A DNA stretch of 64,000 nucleotides from Eledone cirrhosa. Its lineage: Eukaryota. Both the position numbers and the translations under genes were made by a program. Position 1 is the stretch's first letter. Each line of letters starts with the position of its first letter. Shown in pieces: positions 6,341 to 58,965 of the stretch. The notes below the pieces were generated by a model. That model searched no databases. It had not been told where the DNA came from and saw only the letters and a program-made list of their open reading frames with translations. Location: positions 270,878,001 to 270,942,000 of the forward strand of contig OZ024740.1 of the NCBI GenBank assembly GCA_964016885.1, written 5' to 3'.

Positions 6341-6780
6341 ACAGTTATAAATATGTGAATACATGGAAACAAAAATAAATATATAACACTAACAACGATG
6401 ACGATTACGACTACAATCTAAACTATAATAAAGGGAGGAGTGCGGAACAGCGTCCAGAATATATATTTTTTTATCCGGTGTGTAAAATAAGTTGGATTAC
6501 TTTGAATAAATAATGACTGAATACTACATAATATAATTTATCTACTAAATTTCGTTATTCTTGATTAAATATAAATAATTTTGTCGCTTATTTTAAGATT
6601 CACTTCTTTAAAATTTTCCAACGTAAACAATGTAAACACTTAAGCAATCGTTTAAGTAAACAGTCGTATATTTCCGTCAATGGATTACGTTACTGATTAC
6701 ATAAGACAGTGTAACGTAGTCTTCGTTCAATTTCTGTGTATATTGTCAATTACGATTTTATTTGATGTATCGTATCTACA

Positions 6781-7817
6781 GGCTTATGGAATCCCCAAGA
6801 AGATAGTGGACCTGATATCACTGCTCTACACCAACACCAAAGCCCAAGTCATTACACCTGATGGGATGACAGAGTTCTTTGAGATTCTGGCTGGAGTGCT
6901 CCAGGGAGATACATTGGCTCCCTACCTTTTTATCATCGTAGTGGACTATTGTATGCGCCTTGCACTGGAGAAACACCAGGACTCTGGCTTTACTGTGGCA
7001 CCGGCTCAGAGCAGGAGAGTTAGGGTGAAAAAGGTATCGGATGCTGAATTTGCTGACGACATGGTTTTGGTGATAAATACAGTGAAGGAGGCAGAGGATT
7101 TGATGCGGGAGGTTGAGACTGTGTCGATGAGTGTGGGGCTGAGAATGAATGAGACTAAAACAAAATATCTGATAGAGAATGTTGAGAAGCCAGAGGGGAT
7201 CACTAATGTAGGCGGGAAGGCGCTGGAATTGGTTGAGGACTTCCTGTATTTGGGAGCAAAGATTGGGAATACGGAGGATGATGTGGTTGAGAGGAAGAGC
7301 AAGGCCTGGGCGGCGTGCCACAGCTTGAGATCGGTGTGGAAGTCGGACCTTCGTAGAGACCTGAAAATCCGCCTCTTCATTGCTGTAGTGGAGTCTGTGC
7401 TGCTGTATGGGTCTGAGACTTGGACACTGACCAAGAAACTCACTCAGATGGTGGATGGATGCTACACGAGAATGCTGAGGATGGCTCTGAACATTAATCA
7501 GTATACACTGAGGATGAAAAACTCAGAGCTGTATGGGAGCATCCCAAAAGTCAGCTCAAAAGTGACACAGAGGAGACTGAGGTTAGCTGGACATGCTCAC
7601 CGACATCCATAGTTAACATTGCACTCAGTACTCCTTTGGGAGCCCCTACATGGACACACTAGAAGAAGAAGACCAAGGTTAACGTATGTTGATGCCCTAA
7701 GGACATACACTGGTCTGTTGGAGACGCAGAACATGGCAGCGATAATGAGAGACAAAGACCGCTGGAGAGAACTCGTCCATGGATCTCGGGAATTTTACCC
7801 GCCTTAGATAGATAGAT
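6781..7817 (+). mobile_element. 5'-truncated RTE-clade LINE (RT C-terminal half), decayed
   Basis: GVLQGDTLAPYLF, FADD, LLYGSETWTL, RLRLAGH motifs; internal stop at 7610; (TAGA)n tail; TATCTACA on both flanks. Confidence 0.9.
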
Positions 7818-16770: not shown

Positions 16771-17316
16771 CAAATTCAAGACCGAATGACATATATAGAA
16801 ATATATAAAACAATACACAGGAGATAATTTGCAGACAATGAAAGAAACATTAATTACAAATGACCAACATAGACAGTCTAACAAAATATCAAATGGTACT
16901 TACCGAACCCCATATAATTATTTTACTCTCACGTACATAACTCCTTAATGGCTACAGGACCATGTTTCACATTTGAAATGGTTAAGTTCAATGTTTAGCT
17001 AGGATCATCAGCGAGAGGGAGATAGAGCTAATCATATGAACATATACATCTAAGTAAAACTAAGAACTGGCCAAAACGCTCACGGAGTTAGGAAAATAAA
17101 AGCACCCCTCAGTTTTGTCTACGTGAGGTGAATAGCTAGAAATAGCAGCCGAAAATCCATTCAACAATAAGAAGCTTGACCTAATACAAATGTAGGATCA
17201 TATCTATAATACTGAAATGAATAAAGATGTCGTTCCAGTAAAATTACAGACATGCACCATATCACTTGTAATGAAAGCTTATTAAATATATACATATATA
17301 TATGTACATATATATA

Positions 17317-17367
<51 letters not shown>

Positions 17368-17412
17368 GTACATATATCTCTATATATATATCTATATATA
17401 TATATATGTACA

Positions 17413-17456
<44 letters not shown>

Positions 17457-17464
17457 CATATATC

Positions 17465-17495
<31 letters not shown>

Positions 17496-17504
17496 GTACA
17501 TATA

Positions 17505-17542
<38 letters not shown>

Positions 17543-17687
17543 TATATCTATATATATATATATATATATATATGTACATATATCTATATATATATATATA
17601 TATATGTACATATATCTATATATATATATATATATATGTACATATATCTATATATATATATATATATATGTACATATATCTATATAT

Positions 17688-18810
17688 AGGTGTTTCCTCA
17701 AAAACCAGTATGACTCTAAAAACCGGTTTGTCTGTGTGTTTACATACAGAATAGCTGGACACTCACAGTAAAGTGACCAGTGAAAAACTCGGTACATCTA
17801 CATATGTATACGTGTGTGTATTCATATGCATACTAGTATTTCAGTATACATATGTGGATGTACATTTTTAACTTAATTGTTTAAGCGTCAGTCATACAAA
17901 AGTGAGTTACAAACGAAACGAAATTTAATTTCGTTTCGTTATTTGTTTTTATCGTCTCCGTTGAACCGGTACGTACTCACGCTCTATGCAAATTGGTCTG
18001 CCCACTACTAATTTTCATAGAAAAAGCATATAACGATATGTGCTTTTACGATTCTCTAGAAAGGCCGGAAGATAGGTAAATATTGCTGATGAGTTGTAAC
18101 AACAACGAAACTAGTTCAATATTCCTTGTCTGGCTTTCTGGAGAATAGAGGTAAGGTGTTTCCTCAAAAACCAGTATGACTCTAAAAACCGGTTTGTCTG
18201 TGTGTTTACATACAGAATAGCTGGACACTCACAGTAAAGTGACCAGTGAAAAACTCGGTACATCTACATATGTATACGTGTGTGTATTCATATGCATACT
18301 AGTATTTCAGTATACATATGTGGATGTACATTTTTAACTTAATTGTTTAAGCGTCAGTCATACAAAAGTGAGTTACAAACGAAACGAAATTTAATTTCGT
18401 TTCGTTATTTGTTTTTATCGTCTCCGTTGAACCGGTACGTACTCACGCTCTATGCAAATTGGTCTGCCCACTACTAATTTTCATAGAAAAAGCATATAAC
18501 GATATGTGCTTTTACGATTCTCTAGAAAGGCCGGAAGATAGGTAAATATTGCTGATGAGTTGTAACAACAACGAAACTAGTTCAATATTCCTTGTCTGGC
18601 TTTCTGGAGAATAGAGGAAAGGTGTTTCCTCAAAAACCAGTATGACTCTAAAAACCGGTTTGTCTGTGTGTTTACATACAGAATAGCTGGACACTCACAG
18701 TAAAGTGACCAGTGAAAAACTCGGTACATCTACATATGTATACGTGTGTGTATTCATATGCATACTAGTATTTCAGTATACATATGTGGATGTACATTTT
18801 TAACTTAATT
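17688..18810 (+). repeat. Tandem array, 466-bp unit x about 2.4, HHR in each full unit
   Basis: Near-identical units starting about 17688, 18154 and 18620; (TA)-rich tracts on both flanks. Confidence 0.92.
18079..18123 (+). ncRNA. Minimal type-I hammerhead ribozyme (second copy 18545-18589)
   Basis: AATATTG-CTGATGA-GTTG(taacaa)CAAC-GAAA-CTAG-TT-CAATATT. Confidence 0.85.
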
Positions 18811-18833
18811 ATCTATATATATATATATATATA

Positions 18834-18875
<42 letters not shown>

Positions 18876-18911
18876 TATATGTACATATATATATATATAT
18901 ATATAGATATA

Positions 18912-18953
<42 letters not shown>

Positions 18954-19063
18954 TATATGTACATATATCTCTATATATATATATATATATGTACATATAT
19001 CTCTATATATATATATATATATGTACATATATCTATATATATATATATATATATGTACATATA

Positions 19064-19127
<64 letters not shown>

Positions 19128-19149
19128 TCTATATATATATGTACATATA

Positions 19150-19205
<56 letters not shown>

Positions 19206-19213
19206 CATATATC

Positions 19214-19247
<34 letters not shown>

Positions 19248-19448
19248 GGAACGAGTAGGACCCCGACGGCTGAGCTCAAGCCGTTTCGACGGCTGAGCTC
19301 AAGCCGTTTCGACGGCTAATTAGCCGTCGAAACGGCTTGAGCTCAGCCGTCGGGGTCCTACTCGTTCCTAATACCCACTCTACTACCCTAAGTATTGAGT
19401 ACTTTGGTGCGTTATGGTCCACCTGGTTCCTTACCACATTTCTTCCGT

Positions 19449-21748
<2,300 letters not shown>

Positions 21749-29700: not shown

Positions 29701-29970
29701 ACACAACAGGAGGAACAATGAATATAACACCACTGACGATGTTGCAGATGTGCAACGAAAGATTTATGTAAACTATATATATATATATGTGTGTGTTTGT
29801 GTCTATATTATATCTGTATTATTTTTGACCGCCGGTCAGTCAATGGCAACATTGAGGACCGAGTAAGTTAGATCGCAGATATAATAAAAGACAGCGAGAA
29901 GCGAAAACCAACCAAACAGTGAGTGTGTTCTGTTATTAATTCTGGCAATATTACGCAAATATGACCCTCC

Positions 29971-33352: not shown

Positions 33353-33729
33353 GTTCTACGGGACTGGAGTTTCACCTGCGCACACACAGGATCGTCAGAC
33401 AAGGATATATGTATATATATATATATATTGTACGCACATGACAGGCAAGGAAAGCCATACATTGTTCCCTTCCCCGACGTACCACTTTCTCCTCGGAAAC
33501 CCCCCTGTTGATGGATGTGAAATCCGAAATGTAGGGACCAATAAATCGCTTCCAAGATAACTATATCTCTTGTTTTCTTTTTACGTCTTTTTTTCGTTCT
33601 GTTAAGTTCTTTGCGTCCCTTTCTGCTCTTCTTCCTACTTCTCTCTCTCTCATACTACTACCTGACTTTGTTACCCGGATATTTACCGATCTGCATTGCA
33701 GAGGCTTCCAAAATGACCATTATGTATAT

Positions 33730-35567: not shown

Positions 35568-37136
35568 TATCAATTTCTAGTTTATATAAAATGCTCGGAT
35601 GCTTGGTGTCGCCAAAGGCGAAAACGTGTTTTTTTAATTTTTGAAAATTTGAAAGAAAAAAAAAATCGATAAATGCCCACCGCCCACCTGAGTATATTCA
35701 CCACCCCCAACTCCTCTAATGAAATAAAATCTCCCAGTGGCCCCCTTTCAACAAAACAGCACCCACGTAGGGAAACACTGTTCTAGACAAATTAACTAAA
35801 ATTGAAAACCTTTGATAACAAAGTATTACACTAAAACTATCCTCATAAATACTTAGGTGTTAATGAATCTGGGAAAATACAAGGCACAAAAACGAACGAA
35901 AAGTTAGAATTTAGAAATATGCTAGGAATAAGATAAAACATATATCTATTCTAACTTTGCTTATTATCGACTACAGTTTCAATGTTAAACAATGTTAAAT
36001 GAATTGAAGGGCTTTTAGAGACGACAATAGAAAACTACTAACAGCATTCCGAAGCCACTACAACAATATATTTACTATGTACACGCGGAGAATGGGATCT
36101 GATACAAGTAGAAAACTACTTCAAAATAAGATAAGTGGGTGGAATTAGAAAAGTACTTAGAAGCAAGACAACATTGTTATAAGGAAACATGACAAATGTT
36201 AATATATATATAAACAGTTCTAGCCACGTAGAAGCCATATAGGAGGTGAGTTTTATTGTAGCACGATAAAGCAATGCAAGTATAGGATAAGTAGCACTCT
36301 ACAGTTTGTAGGACTGGAGTATAAATAATATAAGATCAAAAGATGGTTCCAAGTATTTTATTATGCGCATTTCAAAAACAAATATCATCATGAGATGATA
36401 TCTGCGTTTTCATCAGATAAAATAGGGATACATGATATGAAGGTTAAAAAACACTTGTGAATAGTGAAGTTTTAAATCAACATATGAAAAATAATTTAAG
36501 ATTGATGTGTGATATTGGGAAAAAGTGAGGGGGGTGGAAAGGGTAAGGAAGAGGAGGAGATGAGAGTAAAGAATGGTGTGGGAGGAGTATAAGAAGGAAG
36601 GATGAGAGAGGAGGAGAGAGAGAGATAGCCTTTACAACTGAGAAAAATATATATTGTCTCACAGAGAGAAGTTAAAAAGCCGTTGGAAGATAATAGATAA
36701 TTTTAAAGAATTTGAAATTAAAAGTTGATGCAGAGAAAAAGGGGTTAAGAATAATATTAAATTAAGGTTTGTATATTGAAGGGTTTATTAATATGTGCGA
36801 GGAAAAGAAATTGTTTATATGTATTATTAAAATTAAAATATTAATGTTATTAAGGATATAATGTGAAAAGAAGTAGAAGAGTGAATGAGTTATGAATTTA
36901 GAGGAATTAGTTAGTGTTTAAGTTTGTTTTCATGTATTGTAATATGTAAAAGCCAAACGAGCATGAAAGGAAGAGATAAGGAACTTAAGGAAGAAATATC
37001 TAACGTCAAAAAATGTTTATGTTTACGAAGGACTATTAAAGGTAATACTATAATGTATTTAAAAGAAAATACATTATAGTATTACCTTTAATAGTCCTTC
37101 GTAAACATAAACATTTGTATATATATATATATATAT

Positions 37137-38358
37137 AACGAAGGAAATGTGGTAAGGAACCAGGTGGACCATAACGAAACCAAAGTACTCAATACTTAGG
37201 GTAGTAGAGTGGGTAATAGGAACCAGTAAGACCCCGACGGCTGAGCTCAAGCCGTTTCGACGGCTAATTCTGGACTAAATGAAAATTTATCCTGGTATTT
37301 AAATAGCCGAGCTTCTCAAGGGGTAATTCCATATATGGTCAAAGTGATTGTCAAAAGTTAGTAGTAATTCTGTGATGGCAAATTAGTGGGGGAGATGGTG
37401 GCTAAACCTGCCAGTAGGAGAAAAAGGGGAGGGGGTGGAGTAGACCCAATCATGCGTTGGTAGTGCCGGCTACAGCTGGGCATGAGGTCAAAGAAGATAC
37501 TGGGGAGGGGGACGGGGAGGAAGTCGACACGGTAGGTAGAACAATGAGGGGTAAAAATATATATATGAAAGAAAAAATACTGAGAGTGATGAAAAGCGAA
37601 TAAGTGTAAAGAAAAAAGAATATATAGGCAAGTTCTACGACCTAAGTCTCTAGCTATTGTTAGGCTAGAAAAATAAATAAAGAAAGAAAGAAAGAGATAA
37701 AGAAATAAATAAAGAAATAACGAAATAAGTAAATAAACTACGTGGTAGTTTCTTTAGTATTTTGGCCCCATTTGTTGACCCGTCACCGTATGATTTACGT
37801 ATTTATACCTCTTAAAAGGGTCATTCCTATTCCGTCCCACCTAGTTTATTTACTTATTCGTTATTTCTTTATTTCTTTATCTCTTTCTTCTTTCTTTATT
37901 TATTTTTCTAGCCTAACAATAGCTAGAGACTTAGGTCGTAGAACTTGCCTATATATTCTTTTTTCTTTACACTTATTCGCTTTTCATCACTCTCAGTATT
38001 TTTTCTTTCATATATATATTTTTACCCCTCATTGTTCTACCTACCGTTTCGACTTCCTCCCCTCCCCCACCCCAGTATCTTCTTTTTTGACCTCATGCCC
38101 AGCTGTAGCCGGCACTACCAACGCATGATTGGGTTTACTCCACCCCCTCCCCTCTTTCTCCTACTGGCAGGTTTAGCCACCATCTCCCCCACTAATTTGC
38201 CATCACAGAATTACTACTAACTTTTGACAATCACTTTGACAATATATGGAATTACCCCTTGAGAAGCTCGGCTATTTAAATACCAGGATAAATTTTCATT
38301 TAGTCCAGAATTAGCCGTCGAAACGGCTTGAGCTCAGCCGTCGGGGTCTTACTGGTTC

Positions 38359-38360
<2 letters not shown>
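37137..38360. repeat. Large fold-back element with about 520-bp inverted arms in a (TA)n site
   Basis: About 37217-37740 is the reverse complement of about 37840-38361; terminal segment shared with 19248, 46237 and 51808. Confidence 0.9.
38254..38347 (+). ncRNA. Hammerhead ribozyme, U3:A8 core variant (mirror copy 37231-37324 on -)
   Basis: ACCCC-TTGAGAA-G..CGGCTA...TAGCCG.C-GAAA-CGGCT(loop)AGCCG-TC-GGGGT. Confidence 0.78.
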
Positions 38361-38392
<32 letters not shown>

Positions 38393-38919: not shown

Positions 38920-39238
38920 ATTGGCTCCCTACCTTTTTATCATCGTAGTGGGCTATTGTATGCGCCTTGCACTGGAGAAACAGCAGGACTCTGGCTTTAC
39001 TGTAGCACCGGCTCAGAGCAGGAGAGTTAAGGCGAAAAAGGTATCAGATGCTGAATTTGCCGACGACATAGTTTTGGTGACAAATACAGTGAAGGGGCAG
39101 ATATGCAGGAGGTTGAGACTATGTCGATGAGTGTGGGGCTGAGAATGAATGAGACTAAAACAAAATATCTGTTAGAGAATGTTGAGAAGCCAGAGGTGAT
39201 CACTAATGTAGGCGGGAAACCGCTAGAATTGGTTGAGA
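38920..39238 (+). mobile_element. Internal fragment of the same RTE family
   Basis: Near-identical to about 6912-7237 (LAPYLF...FADD...). Confidence 0.88.
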
Positions 39239-40180
39239 CCAGCAAGAGGCAGGCCACCTACCATTACCTCAATGGCCAAGAAAACCCACACAGATAGATG
39301 GAACGGGTGGACCAGAGCCATACGGACCCCCGAAAACCACTATGAACTAAAGAGAATGATTGCACATGCGGTGGGGGCCAGCATAAAATTAACCCTTAAG
39401 GAACATATGTTCAAATTTAATGGAAAAACATATGCCCAAGAGGAGGGAGCAGCCATTGGTGTTAGCATTGCAGGCGACATAGCTAACCTATTCATGGTAT
39501 GGTGGGACAGTAGACTTAAACTTAAACTTAAAGAACAATTAGATGACCCCTTAACCCTGATAATGTACTCGCGCTACGTTGATGATATAAACATCGTAGT
39601 TAAAACACCCCCACTAGAAAACAGTCAGGAATTAGAGAAAAACACAATGGAAAGCATCCAGCAAATTGCTAACTCCATCCACCAGAGTATTAGAGTTACT
39701 ATAGACTACCCAAGCAAACACCCCAACCATCAATTACCTGTACTAGACACAGAGCTCTGGTTAGATAACATTAATAACAAAAAAACAAATCCTCCATTCC
39801 CATTATGCCAAACCCATGACTTCCAAATATCTGATCCACCGAAACTCAGCTGTTTCGGACCATACCAAAATCAACATACTGATTGCGGATTTGGTACGGG
39901 TGATGAGAAACGTGTCCCGCATGTGCAGCCCTGAAGAACTAGAGAGACACATACAACACTTCATCCACCGTATGCAGTTCTCTGGTTACAATCAGAGAGA
40001 TAAAATCAGAGTGTATAGAGGAGCCAGAAACAATGGGAAAAAATGGTAAATAATGACACAAATGGGACCTGCCCCTTGTATAGGAGCAAATTTTGGAATA
40101 GAATAGAAAGAACTAGAAATAAGGCTAATAGAATAATCTCATGGTATGATAGCAATAAATGACAGAGTGTAATGTTCCTA
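39239..40180 (+). mobile_element. Penelope-like element RT fragment, frameshifted
   Basis: FKFNGKTYAQEEGAAIG, YSRYVDD and LPVLD motifs; homologous to 57094. Confidence 0.85.
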
Positions 40181-40310
40181 GAGGTGAATTAGCTTACAAA
40201 TTTAGAAGGGCTCTAGATAAACATAAATTCAATATTAAGATATATATATATATATATATATATAATGTATATATATAATATATAATATATAATGTATATA
40301 TATAATATAT

Positions 40311-40733: not shown

Positions 40734-41684
40734 ATAATATATATATAATATATATATATATAATATATATATATAATATATATATATAATATATATATAA
40801 TATATATATATTATATATATATATATAATATATATATATATATAATATATATAATATATATAATATATATATATATAAATAATATATATATATAATATGT
40901 GTACGTATATATATAATATATATGTACATAATATATATGTACGTATAGATACGTGAAAGTATACGTTGCTGACGATAGCTAATAAGCTTGAAACTAGTAC
41001 AGCCTTCTTTTGTCAGTGTTGAACAAATGAGCAACGATGGTTGCTGTACGGCTTAATTCGGTATGTTTGTTTACAAACACACCGAGCATTATAATAAATG
41101 TTGGGTGAATCAATACGTACTCATATATATATGTGCATGTATTTATATATAGAGACATACTACTCTACGTCTGTATACATATATGTATGTACGTATACAT
41201 ACTTATATTTAAGTGACAGCCGTACTAAGAGTGAGAAATGAAATTTCGTTTCATTTTTTCCTTTTATCGTTTTCGGTACCTCGGCCGATTAACTCACTCG
41301 ATATGTAAATTATGGTGCTCAGACGTTAATATGCATAAGGAAAGTGTATACTTTCAGACGTTCAATCATCTGGCAGGAAGGTATACGCTGCTGACGATAG
41401 CTAATAAGCTTGAAACTAGTACAGCGTTCCTTTTTCAGTGTTGAACAAATGAGCAACGATGGTTGCTAGACACTCTACGGCTTAATTCGGGATGTTTGTT
41501 AAGAAAACACACAGAGCATTATAAATGTTTGGTGAATCCATACGTACATATATATATATGTGTGCATGTATGTATATATATATATATACATACTACTATA
41601 CGTCTGTATACATATATCTATGAACGTATACATACTTATATTTAAGTAACAGCCGTACTAAGAGTGAGAAATTAAATTTAATAT

Positions 41685-42124: not shown

Positions 42125-44369
42125 TAATAAATTTGAAGACTAAAATCCAAAGAGGGCTCGATAAGGATAAATATATATCAAATATATAAAAACCGTAGAG
42201 CAAATATTTATTAAAATAACAGATTAAAGTTTAAGCAAAGAATCGCTACTTTCACCCTTAACGGGATCTTCTGAAACTCAGTTTCAGAAGATCCGTTAAG
42301 GGTGAAAGAAGCGATTTCTTTGCTTAAAAGAACTCACAGCCTTCTTTAAAGGCTTCAACCTCTCTATACAGGTTGAGGCCAATCTCTCGGTCGTTAATTA
42401 CCTCGACGTTACCCTCAATTTATCGAATGGGTTGTATTACCCGTATAGAAAGCCGAATGATACGCTTAATTACATAAGTAAGCATTCCAACCATCCTGCC
42501 AGCATAACCAAGAACCTGGTAAGAAACGTTTCGTTGAGGCTTTTCCGTCTATCTACTAACGAGCAGATTTTCAACGATTTCCACTTATTACAATGAAGCT
42601 CTTGCTCGGAGTGGATTTGTCGATAAGGTAGCATATACAGAGTACGGTAATAGACCTAGAAGTAATAGATCCCGTCGCATTTGTTGGTATAACCCACCAT
42701 ATAATATGGAGGTGGCCACACCATTAGCTAAGATCTTTCTATCCCTTATTACGAAGCATTTTCCACCTACACATAAATATAGTAAAATTTTTAATAGAAA
42801 TACTATTAAAATTTCTTACTCTACGACTCCTAACCTTGCACATAACATCACAGCTTCTAATTTAGCTAAACTACCTAACCGTAGGAACACGTGCAATCCT
42901 GTAGTTAGTACTAACTGTAATTGTAGGAATTGGGTTGATTGCCCCCTTTCCGGGAAATGCCTCTCCTGTAACATTGTCTACAAATGTAAGGTTGAAACAC
43001 TCACGTCCCGTAGGGCCTACATAGGGTTAACCGTCAATAGATTCAAGCAGCGTCTTTACATGCATACCCATTCTTTTCGTTACCCTCTTAGAAGGAATAT
43101 GACGTCACTTTCAGCTTATATCTGGAGTCTAAAAGACAACCACACCCAATTTAAGTTACACTGGGAGATCCTAGCTAGGGCTAGATCGTATAACGGAAAT
43201 AAAAGGCCATGTGACCTCTGCGCCGCTGAGGCCCTGGAAATACTCTACGCCACAGACCACATCTTAAACAAAAAATCTGAGGCAATTTCGGCTTGTAAAC
43301 ATAAATTGCACAAAATGTTCCTGTATTACAGCCCCACATTATACCCTAACGGATAGTACGATCTATACGTGGATTTTTTACGTCTTGGTGTGGTAGCTAA
43401 GTATATGTTTTGTTTATACCATTACTTATTTGCATAGGTAAGTATATATTACCTGTATGTTTTGTGAAGGTACGTATACTGTCTCATACGTATATTTGAT
43501 TGATTATGTTATGGCGTATACATTTTTTTATTTTCTGGTACATATGGTTTGGTTATGTGTATACGGGAGTTTTGCGTCTGCGTGTATGCAGGTTCGTACG
43601 TATGTAGGGTGTGTGTATATGTGTACTTCATGTTATGGATGATTTACCTCTCCGACCATTTGTGTATTTACATGTAGGTATGTGGGTGCGCTTGTTATAT
43701 ACGTATTTATTTATTTATATACGTTTATTTAATTATTTATTTGTATACACGCACACACATACACACACACATATTTATATGTGCGTGGTTTTGTATACCT
43801 ATGGCAAGTGTTTTGCGTATGCTTGTGTATGTACGTATTTGAATGTGTGTATGCATTTATTTAATTTCTATTACCCCTGTATTGTATTTATTTACTTTAT
43901 TCTTAACTCTGAAGCGGAGATTCATTCGGTTTCCTAGTTAGAATTTAGTCTACGACTTCAACTATACCATTTACGTGGTTTTGTCTTTGCGTGCATTTGG
44001 TATCCACGCTCCACATATGACGTATTATCTTCGTTTTTTCCGTTCATTGCCAGAGAACGTCTCTATGAACCACCTAAGAGAACATTAGTCTACGACTTCT
44101 TTTATACCATAAACGTGGTTCTGTCTTTGCGCGTAATTGTTTTTCATCGCTCCTATTAATGACGTATTATATTCGTTTTTTTCCCGTTCTTTGCCAGGGA
44201 ACGTTTCCACGAACCAAAGTATCGTCTTCCTGTTTTCCTCCGGTTGCAACGTTTTTTGAAATATCCACTTCTGCGTTTACAGATTGACTTTGTTAGTTTC
44301 AGAAGATCCTGTTAAGGGTGAAAGCAGCGATTCTTTGCTTAAACTTTAATCTGTGATTTTAATAAATTA

Positions 44370-46239: not shown

Positions 46240-46796
46240 AAAGAGCTCAAGCCGTTTCGACGGCTAATTCTGTCCAGAATTAGCCGTCGAAACAGCTTGA
46301 GCTCAGCCGTCGGGGTCCTACTCTTTCCTATTACCCACTCTACTACCCTAAGTATTGAGTACTTTGGTGCGTTATAGTCCACCTGGTTCCTTACCACATT
46401 TCCTTCGTTATATATATATATATATATAATATAATATATATATATAATATAATATATATATATATAATATAATATATATATATATAATATAATATATTAT
46501 ATATATATATAATATAATATATATATATATAATATAATATATATATATAATATAATATATATATAATATAATATATATATATAATATAATATAATATATA
46601 TATAATATAATATATATATATATAATATAATATATATATAATATAATATATATATATAATATAATATAATATATATATAATATAATATATATATATAATA
46701 TATATAATATATATATATATATAATATAATATATAATATATATATATATATATTATATATATATATATATATATAATATAATATATAATATATATA

Positions 46797-50534: not shown

Positions 50535-51993
50535 AACACTTCGACGATGGCACAGGTACAAAGGTCGAATTTTGTTTTATCAAGTGGTATATATCTATGA
50601 GTATGTGAAAGATGATAATATCAGTTAAACTATATTGTAAAGAAGTACACAGAGATTAAGCCAATTATTTAGAAATCATGATTATATGGATCATTAATTA
50701 AGTGCAATTTTCATATCACACCATATGAAAAAGAAAACACCCCTTTAATCTTTAAAAGCGGTTACTTCAATGTTCATCAAATCAAGCAAGTTTGTGTGTG
50801 GTTATATATGGTTTTCATTAAATAAAATTGTATATAAATTCTTGAAGCAAGGTAAAGTACTTATTACGTGACTGACACACAATATAGCATATAAATGGAA
50901 TTTATATGTGTGACTGTGTATGGAGGGGGAGTATGAATATAGATGGAAATATACACGAAGTTCTCGTAGCAGAATGAAGTATTTATTACGTGACTGACAC
51001 ACCATATAGTCTATGAATGGAATTTATATGCCTGTGTGTGTGTGGGTGTCTGTTTGTTTGTGTGTGTGGACATTGGGAAAATGCAAAATACCACAGGAGT
51101 GCGTTCTTCATAATGTATGTGTATGCAGTAATATGAAGAAGCTCCCTTGTGGAGTCGTAAAGGTACCGTTATACGGTGTGTCTAGGACACTTTTAAACCT
51201 GGTGGAGCCCAAGCATCTCCATGTCTGAACACAGCCGATTTTTTCTGTAGGAGAAGATTCAACCCCAGTACTGGACTGGTATTTTTTTATCGACCTCGAA
51301 AGGATGAAAAGCAAAGTTGACCACGGCGAGATTTGAACTCAGAGCGGGCAATGAGGTGGGATGAATAACGTAAAGCATTCTACCTGACGTCTTAACGACT
51401 CTGCAAATTCACCGCCGATACGCAGTAATATCTCACATGCTAAATATAGCGAGTGGGGAATTTTTAATAGGCTATGTTTATACTTGTAATTTCTTCAGTG
51501 CTGTGCATATCCAAAACGAATACGCGGGGATTCACATCATCTAACTCCATCTAAATTTTAAGATATGTTTAAGACAACTAATGATAAAGGACATGTTTCG
51601 AACATGGCTGGTGGATTGGCAAAATCCTTTGCATTTCAGTATTTGAACGGGGTCTTTAATGTTCTGAGTTCAAATCCCGCCGAAGTAACTCTGGCTTTCA
51701 TCCCTCCAGGATCAATAAAATAAAGTATGAGCTATACACATCCCACTCCCTCCCTCACTCTGTCTCTCTTCTTCGCTCACTCTTTTTATATATATATATA
51801 TATATATAACGAAGGAAATGTGGTAAGGAACCAGGTGGACCATAACGCACCAAAGTACTCAATACTTGGGGTAGTAGAGTGGGTAATAGGAACCAGTAAG
51901 ACCCCGACGGCTGAGCTCAAGCCGTTTCGACGGCTAATTCTGAGAATTAGCCGTCGAAACGGCTTGAGCTCAGCCGTCGGGGTCTTACTGGTT

Positions 51994-52030
<37 letters not shown>

Positions 52031-55493: not shown

Positions 55494-57093
55494 TATTTAT
55501 GTACAGTACATCACTATTATGTTTAGCAGTGTATAAATTAAGAGGGTTAATTTCAATATTTCCTATGTATCTAAGTTATAAATCCCCACGCCTCAACCTT
55601 GTTTTGTTAATGCTCTATCATCACCATGCTAATATCGGTATGATACGAACGACATGTGAATTGTAGGGCACACTGCATGCTCAAATCTATATTATTCACT
55701 CTGAGGTTCTATATCTTTTAAGATATATCCTCTGTATCTTACATCTTTTATCCCAGAATTTTATTATCCAGCTTTTCACCAAATCTCTCTAAGAAGATTC
55801 CCGTCTTAAAATTGTCTCTAATCTTTCCCCGTAACTTTAAACCCCCCCCCCCCTCTCTCTGTCCCTCTCTCTCCTTCTCTCCCTCTCTCTCTCTCTCTCT
55901 TTCTCTTACTTGCTTCGGATTTGTTTCCATCTTTCACTCTTTCTCTCACCATTTCTCTCTCACCCTTTCTCTCTCACCCTTTCTCTCTCACCCTTTCTCT
56001 CTAACCATTCTCTCTCATTACCTAACTTTTCTACCTCTACTACAACGGTATATGTTCTTTTAAACTATAAGTAACACTTTCTCAAACAGATTTATCTGAT
56101 TATCCCCCCCCCACCCCACCCACACCCACACAACACACACAATTTTCTCTATGCCAGGATTGCATTACTTTCTAACACTTACTCTGTGCATGTTTGTTTT
56201 TTCTCCCTCAATTACTGACATGCAAAGATTCAGACTGAACATCAGCAAGAGTAATCTCATCTTCTTATCATTCATTGTACCACAATATAACTTTGCCTGA
56301 AAAAAAACAAGCTTTGGACATCAACGTTTCTCTATTGATTACTCAATAAAAAGAAAACAAAAGTTTATTCTTTTATATAATCTCTTTTATCCAAGAATTT
56401 TACCGATAACGGCTTGATTACACAATTTTTTTGTTTGTAAATATCAAACTTTTTCGAGCCATAAGGCAGAGTGCAATTGTTCAGCTTTGCAATAAAACAG
56501 CTAAGCTAACTTGTCTTGTTAGATTGATTATTTTCGTGTGATTTATCTGGAGTTTCCTTGCTATACTAATTATATGATCGGTTCGCTTCATGCAACAGGT
56601 AATGAGTATATACACAACTTCAGCGATCACGTGGAAAAAACATGTTACTTAAATATAAGTATGTATACGTACATACATATATGTATACAGACGTACAGTA
56701 GTATGTATATATATACATACATGCACACATATATATATGTGCTTTCAGACGCTCAATCATCTGGCAGGAAGGTATGCGGTGCTGACGATAGCTAATAAGC
56801 TTGAAACTAGTACATCGTTCCTTTGTCAGTGTTGAACAAAAGGGCAACAATGGTTGCTAAACACTGTACGGCTTAATTCGGGATGTTTGTTTACAAACAC
56901 ACCGAGAATTATAATAAATGTTCGGTGAATCCATACGTACATATATATGTATATGTGCATATATACATACTACTGTACGTCTGTATACATATATGTATGT
57001 ACGTATACATACTTATATTTAAGTAACAGCCGTACTAAGAGTGAGAAATGAAATTTCGTTTCATTTTTTCCGTTTATATATATCACTATACAT

Positions 57094-58965
57094 ATGGTCG
57101 CACATGCCATAGGGGCTAGTATCAAAACTACCCTAAAGGGCCACATATTCAAGTTCAACGAGAAGATCTACACCCAAAATGGGGGAGCAGCCATTGGCGT
57201 TAGCATAGCTGGTGACGTTGCCAACCTTTTTATGGTATGGTGGGAAAGGAGACTTAAATATCTCCTTGATGAGAGCTCCATAGACCTCATCATGGACTCT
57301 CGTTACGTAGACGATATCAATATAATAATAAGGACATCCCCACAAGTGAGCACTAACAAGTTTGACTTAGAACGTAGCACAATGGAAAGCATCCAGCAGA
57401 TAGCTAATTCCATACACCAGAGTATAACTGTAACTATCGACTACCCTTCCAAACACCGTAACAATAGACTACCTGTATTAGACACGGAACTCTGGATTAA
57501 CACTATAGACGAGAGAGCCCAAATTCTCCACTCACACTATGCTAAACCCATGGCCTCCAAATACCTGATACTCAAAAACTCAGCAATGTCCAGTAGTGCT
57601 AAGTTTAATATCCTGATCGTAGACTTGGTACGAGTGATGAAGAACATGTCCCGCATGTGCGACCCAACAGAAATGGAAAGACACACCCAACACTTTATCA
57701 ACCGCATGCAGTTCTCTGGCTACAACCAAAGAGACAGAATCAGAGTATACGAAGGAGCCACGGAGAAGTATAAGACCCTCATAGAACTGGACATGAAAGG
57801 AATTTGCCCATTATACAGGAGCAAATCATGGAATAGCTTAGATAGGGCTAGACATAAGATAGGGAAAGCCACCTCATGGTACGACAACCAGAGATACCAG
57901 AGTGTCATGTTTGTGGACGCTACCCCTGGAGGGAAATTAGCTAACCAGTGTAGAAAGGCCCTGAGAAAGACCCACTTAAAGATTAAGGTGGTAGAAAAGC
58001 CAGGAACCACCATAAAATCCCTGATCAGCAAAACCTACCCTTTTTTAGAAAACCAACTGTACTAATAGGAAATGTATCATATGTAAAGTAAACCCCCGGA
58101 TAAACTGTAAAACTAGAAACGTAGTCTATAGCATAAGATGTACAGAGAGTACTTGCAGAAACATGACAACATACATACATAGGCGAGACAGTTCGTAGCA
58201 TAGGTGAAAGGATAGACCAACACTGGGGGGAACTAAAAGGACGAAAAAACGGTACAGTACTATACGAACATGCCAGACGACAACACAACGGTAACATAGA
58301 CAACATAGAAATTAGAATAATATCTAAACATAGAAATGACCCAGCAGATAGGCAAATCAGAGACGCCAGTGAAATAGAACTTAGAAGGCCAAGGCTAAAC
58401 AGAAAATATGAATGGAATAACAACACCCAAACAAACAACACTGACCTAAGAGAAGTATAAATAAATAAATAAATAAATAAATAGATAAATAAATACATAC
58501 ATACACAAGCACAATAACAACAAACACATATAAACACACACTAGTAAATATAGAATATATTAACCAATACACAGTCACCCAATCACGAACACACATCAAA
58601 CAAAACACTATACACACACGCAAACGCATGCGCAAAGAAGACAAAAAAAATAAACAAATAAATAAATATATAAACAGACTAAATAAAGATGGCGTAGAAA
58701 ATACAATGCAACGGGAGGAAACAATAGCACCACTGACGATGTTGCAGATGTGCAACGAAAGAACTTTGATAGACTATATATATGTGTTTGTGTCTATATT
58801 GTATCTGTATTTTTGACCGTTGGTCACTCAATGGCAACATTGAGGACCGAATAAATTAAATTAACCGATATAAAAGACACAGAAGCGAAAAGCGAAAACC
58901 AACCAAACAGTGAGTGTGTTCTGTTATTAATTCTGGCAATATTACACAAATATGACCCTCCCCAA
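57094..58965 (+). mobile_element. 5'-truncated Penelope-like element: RT, decayed GIY-YIG endonuclease and 3' UTR with HHR-like motif
   Basis: SRYVDD; TYIGETVRSIGERIDQH near 58175; CTGACGA-GTTGCA/TGCAAC-GAAA at 58733-58760; 3' end also found at 29700-29973 and 8860-8956. Confidence 0.88.

Follow-up and report, generated by a model that had tools for sequence, protein, structure and literature searches.

The window analysed here, a 64,000-nt stretch of an Eledone cirrhosa contig (OZ024740.1, assembly GCA_964016885.1), contains a tandem array of 466-nt units set between two (TA)n-rich microsatellites (Table 1). TRF gives the array a period of 466, 2.4 copies and 99% matches. Only one base separates the two full units (T at 18152, A at 18618) and a 191-nt third piece is identical to them, which bears out the near-identical tandem units of the original prediction. 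At position 18152/18618, nearly all depth in the contigs of run X1, possibly the assembly's own sample, carries the other unit's letter, so the difference is a private change. In monomer numbering, which starts at the predicted hammerhead cut, the array is truncated on its 5′ side at position 38 and ends on its 3′ side at position 228, a fixed site termed A below; it is a lone arm without an inverted partner, and its ends lie inside the unit, with no LTR. The monomer has a longest ATG ORF round the circle of 19 aa on the plus strand and 50 aa on the minus strand. It is predicted to fold as a branched structure, and its circular fold has a z of -10.7 against 60 shuffles.

Minus-strand VWA exons on both sides of the array (a spliced one at 16454-16114, others near 31.5-33.4 kb) make it probable that it is intronic and runs antisense to a VWA-domain gene. 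On the minus strand between 4457 and 33371, a matrilin/collagen VI-like gene is represented by a TSP1 exon and by VWA exons in tandem, some exons forming near-duplicate pairs (16.0-16.5 and 32.8-33.4 kb; 14.7-15.0 and 31.5-31.8 kb). Rfam miRNA matches in the window scored under their gathering thresholds and were set aside as (TA)n artefacts.

Table 1. Features of the 466-nt array and its 421-nt relatives, in window positions unless marked as monomer positions.
Feature	Position	Strand	Basis or remark
466-nt retrozyme array, 2.41 units	17688..18810	+	TRF, sequence comparison
(TA)n-rich microsatellite, 5′ side of array, target site	17286..17687	.	
(TA)n-rich microsatellite, 3′ side of array, target site	18811..19245	.	
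Predicted monomer RNA between two predicted cuts, 466 nt	18117..18582	+	ORF scan, folding
Type I hammerhead 1	18070..18131	+	sequence, fold, Rfam
Hammerhead 1, distal helix	18070-76/18125-31	+	
Hammerhead 1, stem I, 7 bp	18079-85/18117-23	+	
Hammerhead 1, core	18086-92 and 18107-10	+	
Hammerhead 1, stem II, 4 bp	18093-96/18103-06	+	
Hammerhead 1, palindromic helix III	18110-15	+	
Hammerhead 1, predicted cut	after 18116	+	GUU triplet
Type I hammerhead 2, identical to hammerhead 1	18536..18597	+	predicted cut after 18582
Long-range 8-bp helix, both families	18174-81 with 18356-63	+	RNAalifold alignment columns 58-65 with 257-264
Site A, fixed 3′ end, inferred reverse-transcription start	monomer 227-233; 18343..18349	+	
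GAAA/UUUC hairpin and site B region	18378..18418, hairpin 18378-18406	+	
Site B, second fixed 3′ end	monomer 300-303; about 18418, first unit 17952	+	
421-nt family array, homologous, 3.8 units, separate insertion	20155..21747	+	
Diverged 421-family copy, 88-91%	40955..41679	+	
421-family copy with inverted arm	56643..57077	.	arm ends near A- and B-homologous sites

The array contains two hammerhead ribozymes (HHRs), whose cores, composed of CUGAUGA and GAAA, begin at 18086 and 18552. Each shows the hallmarks of a type I hammerhead: the core, an NUH cut site, helices I and II, and an open helix I, here extended by a distal helix; the 4 bp of helix II close a 6-nt loop. The 7-bp stem I, canonical core, 4-bp stem II and ACTAGT palindrome were all originally described as they are found. 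The label "minimal HHR", however, does not hold. By the definitions in the available text of PMC4209133, the minimal HHRs found in Penelope-like elements (PLEs) possess a helix II of 7-8 bp and a helix I of 4-5 bp, while canonical metazoan type I HHRs function as dimers owing to their weak helix III. With a helix II of 4 bp and a helix I of 7 bp plus the distal helix, the motif falls outside the minimal form; it belongs to the canonical metazoan type I HHRs, its helix III being palindromic and weak. The Rfam model Hammerhead_HH9 (RF02275, clan CL00010) matches it over the full model length at 37.7 bits, with E-values of 1.5e-8 in a local scan and 6.1e-6 over the whole window; type I topology, core and helices agree with that family, but helix III is much shorter here and the score lies below the gathering score of 52.

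Folded as a monomer, the HHR can form a single A-U pair in helix III and is predicted to misfold, the core CUG pairing with the helix III loop, while two ACTAGT palindromes from separate copies are predicted to form a duplex of -8.0 kcal/mol. These modelled folds agree with a canonical form acting as a dimer. The axolotl HHR_Amex1 likewise has a single-pair helix III with a palindromic tetraloop. The predicted cut triplet is GUU in the unit of the window; a sister subfamily has GUC, the 421-nt family GUA, and GUU is the weakest of the three. Among predicted retrozyme dimers, only one of nine was cleaved in vitro (bioRxiv 10.64898/2026.07.22.740005, available text). The HHR is intact in 128 of 130 monomers and its core holds none of the 12 variable sites, but most loci were chosen by an exact HHR pattern, and intactness is therefore not used as evidence of conservation.

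Three members of the 421-nt family lie in the same window (Table 1). The original prediction held that the 466-nt and 421-nt units share ordered blocks, that their stems differ with pairing kept, and that they are two diverged lineages of one HHR-bearing RNA family. The named blocks are indeed present in that order, and with the HHR removed the units still align significantly: z is 15.2 locally and 13.5 globally, none of 1000 dinucleotide shuffles reaches such a score, and 289 of 409 aligned columns are identical. When the TA-rich hairpin is removed as well, z remains at 10.9-11.4. The segment just 3′ of the HHR gives a weaker signal on its own, matched by 12 of 1000 shuffles locally and by 0 of 1000 globally. 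A variant of 427-434 nt is 86% identical to the 421-nt unit and 68% to the 466-nt unit over aligned columns. The HHR stems covary, with both-sided changes in 6 of 15 pairs, and RNAalifold on eight monomers finds 22 of 92 consensus pairs changed on both sides; these counts come from eight related sequences in two lineages and hence reflect few independent events. Alignment and covariation together support the proposed kinship of the two lineages. The long-range 8-bp helix is maintained across both families by two compensatory changes and closes a domain that contains the TA-rich hairpin and site A.

The repeat is not a local satellite, since the exact 45-nt HHR of the 466-nt unit occurs 4,843 times in the 3.0-Gb assembly, where a control pattern has no occurrence. 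A pattern excluding this exact HHR finds 5,789 further sites; 84 of the first 100 listed belong to a 466-type subfamily whose helix II carries a compensatory change. Another pattern, placed on a block common to both families, finds 5,529 sites, 94 of the first 100 listed being of the 421 type. Matches to the 466-nt unit itself, 199 in the genome and all from the best 40 candidates, are dispersed over many contigs, and the full-length ones among those listed are 93-100% identical. We grouped the first 100 exact HHR matches into 27 loci over 58 Mb, from which about 1,300 loci of the exact-HHR type can be extrapolated genome-wide. The 466-nt unit (window 17900-18365) is also seen at high identity and low depth in runs X4, X5 and X6, which bear other organism codes; relatives, diet or contamination are possible sources of these copies.

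The original prediction overlooked the main feature of the family, which is the anatomy of its insertions: 3′ ends at two fixed sites, arms inverted head to head, and (TA)n as the target. This anatomy was read from the 27 loci, fetched in genome order. Every one of them has its 3′ end at site A or site B, and 38 of 43 such ends enter a TA tract. The stretch from A to B forms a tail of about 70 nt in the 466-nt family and about 56 in the 421-nt family. Head-to-head inversions with the 3′ ends facing outward are found at 17 of the 27 loci. Where two complete inverted arms are present, one arm ends at A and the other at B in 15 cases out of 16, the exception being A/A and none being B/B, a split with a chance near 0.0003 by our own arithmetic if the ends were independent. 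Short inverted stubs of the opposite end type accompany 4 of 10 single-arm loci. In the 421-nt family the 3′ ends fall at 216-219 and 275, aligned to A and B, and are paired in the same way. In run X1, contigs break off into (TA)n at both sites (18349 for A, 17951-17953 for B). The 5′ ends, by contrast with these fixed 3′ ends, are scattered across the unit in 85 arms: none falls at the predicted cut (positions 1-10, 1.8 expected), and 10 fall at positions 11-30 (3.6 expected), an interval picked post hoc for which the 421-nt family gives 0 of 56.

A further abundant repeat of similar design occurs in the window at 19246-19452, 37134-38361, 46281-46412 and 51805-51997, with inverted arms. The copy at 19246-19452 represents an element with two fixed ends 82 nt apart that lead into (TA)n (17 and 37 of 68 distinct matches); neither an ORF nor a link to the 466-nt or 421-nt units was found for it. 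As a relative of these units it was rejected: it has a few bases in common with site B, but all four tests stood at background.

The insertion anatomy of the 466-nt family ties it to the machinery of PLEs. In the text available, PLE insertions are described as 5′-truncated partial tandems with an inverted copy, a one-end tail of 30-40 bp and a bias towards (TA)n (PMC8557442). The purified protein of one PLE cuts both strands of AT-rich DNA in vitro, and reverse transcription starts in vitro at two internal sites that bound the tail; the HHR of that PLE cleaves only with the protein present and is dispensable for insertion (PMC11167929, in part). The 466-nt insertions resemble endonuclease PLEs (Penelope/Poseidon, Neptune, Hydra) as portrayed in the accessible parts of both papers (PMC8557442, PMC11167929) in their partial tandems, 5′ truncation, inverted 5′ copy, one-end tail, (TA)n targets and an HHR upstream of the 3′ end. 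They differ from the PLEs described there in having no ORF, a tail of about 70 nt rather than 30-40, a canonical rather than a minimal HHR, and up to 30 or more units per arm.

At least three autonomous PLE families in the genome have long open frames: one of 1210 aa, one of about 887 aa, and one of 713 aa whose RWR and DKT motifs are Hydra-clade-like. All three terminate at two clusters of sites, beyond which (TA)n follows. These are few of many families, the first-look candidates numbering 24,009-76,596 per protein. Against the terminal regions of four autonomous families, the 466-nt and 421-nt units gave z <=1.0 in all 16 tests, where controls reached 5.4 and 13.7. The first shuffle tests of these termini had seemed significant; their inputs held flanking (TA)n and a neighbouring 421-nt copy, and the signal was dropped because all 16 tests stood at background once both were trimmed. 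In 1.08 Mb of fetched loci, a profile search returned family relatives and one probable chance match but no pseudo-LTR (pLTR) partner, and when both monomers were compared by blastn with ten 1210-aa PLE loci, the matches were all short and of low complexity. Screening of 23 flanks of the 466-nt family and 51 of the 421-nt family yielded no autonomous-PLE 5′ junction. No RT/GIY-YIG ORF lies within or is continuous with the arrays of either family in the loci examined, where ORFs near the units are set apart by (TA)n. With neither terminal similarity nor a chimeric 5′ junction in these searches, the helper PLE is deduced from the anatomy.

A profile match at L016 was rejected as a relative, being a one-off junction (one genome match) to the opposite strand of another element; there, at L016:2612-2860, a 466-nt arm is joined to an element beside Hydra-type ORFs, possibly through a template switch (n = 1). 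PLE remnants occur in the window itself. Two families of the 1210-aa type, which combine an RT with a C-terminal GIY-YIG, are present as 5′-truncated broken copies at 57052-58950 and 39227-40230, and intact tandem copies of the former family exist elsewhere, e.g. at L061. A Hydra-clade-like fragment occupies 42140-43356 and downstream, and its family has 713-aa open frames at L252 and two fixed 3′ ends.

It is highly probable that the array is one insertion of a non-coding HHR repeat, likely mobilised as RNA by the RT/GIY-YIG endonuclease of an autonomous PLE. The family is likely a non-LTR retrozyme, a non-coding passenger of PLEs inserted by target-primed reverse transcription. In such a scheme the array would be transcribed into RNA whose tandem HHRs, joined by base pairing of the helix III palindrome, cleave as dimers, and the resulting monomers or short multimers, possibly circularised, would adopt the conserved structure. 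A PLE protein would cut both strands of a (TA)n tract, one cDNA beginning at site A and another at site B, each spanning several units. The two 5′-truncated products would then join head to head, or a single arm would remain, as in the window; long arrays probably also expand later as DNA. Points against this explanation are the missing similarity to the termini of four PLE families, the screened flanks without an autonomous-PLE 5′ junction, a tail longer than described, the lack of 5′ truncations at the predicted cut, the predicted misfolding of the monomer, the single cleaving dimer among nine predicted retrozyme dimers, and the few independent events behind the covariation counts.

Non-LTR retrozymes are an established metazoan class (Cervera and de la Pena, 2020, PMC7229834), and in the available text of their preprint Li, Clavereau and Pollet argue that retrozymes represent non-autonomous PLE derivatives (bioRxiv 10.64898/2026.07.22.740005). 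The sequence characters of the class are found here: non-coding units in tandem, each bearing a single type I HHR, HHRs in consecutive units, an absence of LTR features, a GC content below 50%, thousands of dispersed copies, a strongly self-paired predicted circle, and PLEs in the same genome. At 466 nt the unit lies above the 150-450 bp given in the consulted part of PMC7229834 and inside the 51-972 bp of bioRxiv 10.64898/2026.07.22.740005. Among the PLE termini and fetched loci searched, no pLTR sequence link was found for the family; its dual fixed ends and paired inversions are unmentioned in the available text of both sources.

How the template gave rise to several units per arm bears on the claim, made originally, of recent rolling-circle-like copying. 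Recent copying accords with the high identity of the listed matches; a rolling circle as the cause of unit identity is possible, but alternating variants in some arrays call for a multimeric template or for later expansion as DNA. Among 130 full monomers the mean number of substitutions is 0.71 within an arm, 0.71 across arms and 15.4 between loci. The equality within and across arms fits one template per insertion and also fits a circle. That a self-cleaved monomer was ligated to a 466-nt circle and copied round, which alone would yield identical units, is a serious candidate, its chance falling slightly short of even. Units within an array differ by a median of 0, against 13 between loci; 18 identical units span both arms of L172-L173; the cDNAs traverse the predicted cut site repeatedly; and the low z of the circular fold points the same way, as do the circular RNAs documented for coral, mussel and axolotl retrozymes (PMC7229834, in the text available). 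However, unit types alternate in L182 (ABAB), a period-3 run occurs within one arm of L186-L187, both arms of L194 contain a mixture of two alleles, and shared variants form a mosaic across a 30-unit array. Such units cannot stem from one monomeric circle, so some templates were multimeric or some arrays were reshuffled as DNA. A joint in the run contigs that "goes back 466" is equally given by tandem DNA. Copying of a circle is compatible with PLE-driven insertion as a possible sub-step of it. L198-L226 (G000:C1:5.738-5.753 Mb) has about 31 units in one arm and one in the other, with common variants in non-periodic order.

Alternatively, the unit could be the pLTR of an autonomous PLE elsewhere, the arrays being copied from ORF-less pLTR tandems. 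In size and in the distance from HHR to end the unit agrees with the spacer of the 1210-aa PLE, which is 484 nt long, and among 57 retrozyme families of Xenopus 24 have a match in known elements, almost always a PLE terminus (bioRxiv 10.64898/2026.07.22.740005, in part). Nevertheless, no PLE ORF is continuous with the unit in the 466-nt and 421-nt loci examined, and the termini of four PLE families, few of the many present, have no homology to the units, which leaves this origin unlikely. It is very improbable that the repeat is an ordinary minisatellite spread by DNA recombination, with the HHR as a relic: long arrays do bear signs of DNA-level shuffling, but unequal crossing-over does not produce dispersal over many contigs, fixed 3′ ends, random 5′ ends, A/B-paired inversions or (TA)n flanks, stem II has a compensatory change in the sister subfamily, and the end anatomy already largely refutes the idea. 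Equally far-fetched is a SINE-like passenger of an ordinary LINE, for although a LINE-type RT is present in the window (RTE-like fragment at 6656-7612) and 5′ truncation and inversion occur with LINEs too, LINE priming uses the RNA's 3′ end, and two internal ends, one per outward-facing arm, with no poly(A) fit a PLE instead. A second LINE-type (RTE-like) RT fragment lies at 38920-39220.

Insertion by PLE machinery may, more tentatively, be taken one step further. These retrozymes could be structure-encoded parasites of a PLE enzyme whose pLTR ancestry is gone from the sequence, a dimeric RT/endonuclease priming at both (TA)n ends. One small RNA, possibly a circle, would offer two start sites to the dimer, one site per cut end, giving two outward-facing tandem arms. 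If this were true, the family would be a natural readout, 466 nt long and repeated a thousand-fold, of the origin of PLE inversion and one-sided tails, and direct insertion-level evidence for retrozyme movement by PLE machinery.

HHR tandem repeats are a described class in animals, to which the 466-nt family adds an insertion anatomy. In the available parts of the papers considered here, the link between retrozymes and PLEs is one of co-occurrence and pLTR similarity, with the mechanism of mobilisation left open; the 466-nt insertions bear a PLE footprint directly. Their strict pairing of one A with one B end fits the two RT start sites and two-strand cutting seen in vitro (PMC11167929, in part). 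A published parallel is offered by non-autonomous Chlamys elements such as MRC1, which are also non-coding PLE passengers with multicopy head-to-tail insertions; in the text available, their 3′ end resembles the autonomous partner and their clade is mostly without HHR (PMC8557442). The 466-nt family, in contrast, has an HHR, and no partner similarity was found in the termini of four PLE families and the fetched loci. A literature search, bearing largely on open papers without their supplements, found no report of the 466-nt family or of paired A/B retrozyme ends, and published retrozyme or PLE catalogues may already contain the family. A 466-nt RNA whose two ends are mapped, together with a diverged sister family by which the conserved helices can be recognised and three open-frame PLE families in the same genome, offers a compact system for testing how PLE tails and inversions arise and which role the ribozyme plays.

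Other hammerhead-like cores are present in the window at 29733 and 58733 on the plus strand and at 33398, 33873, 9930, 14081 and 36416 on the minus strand. Those at 29733 and 58733 are part of the pLTR of 1210-aa PLEs, and several additional HHR families recur in the fetched loci.
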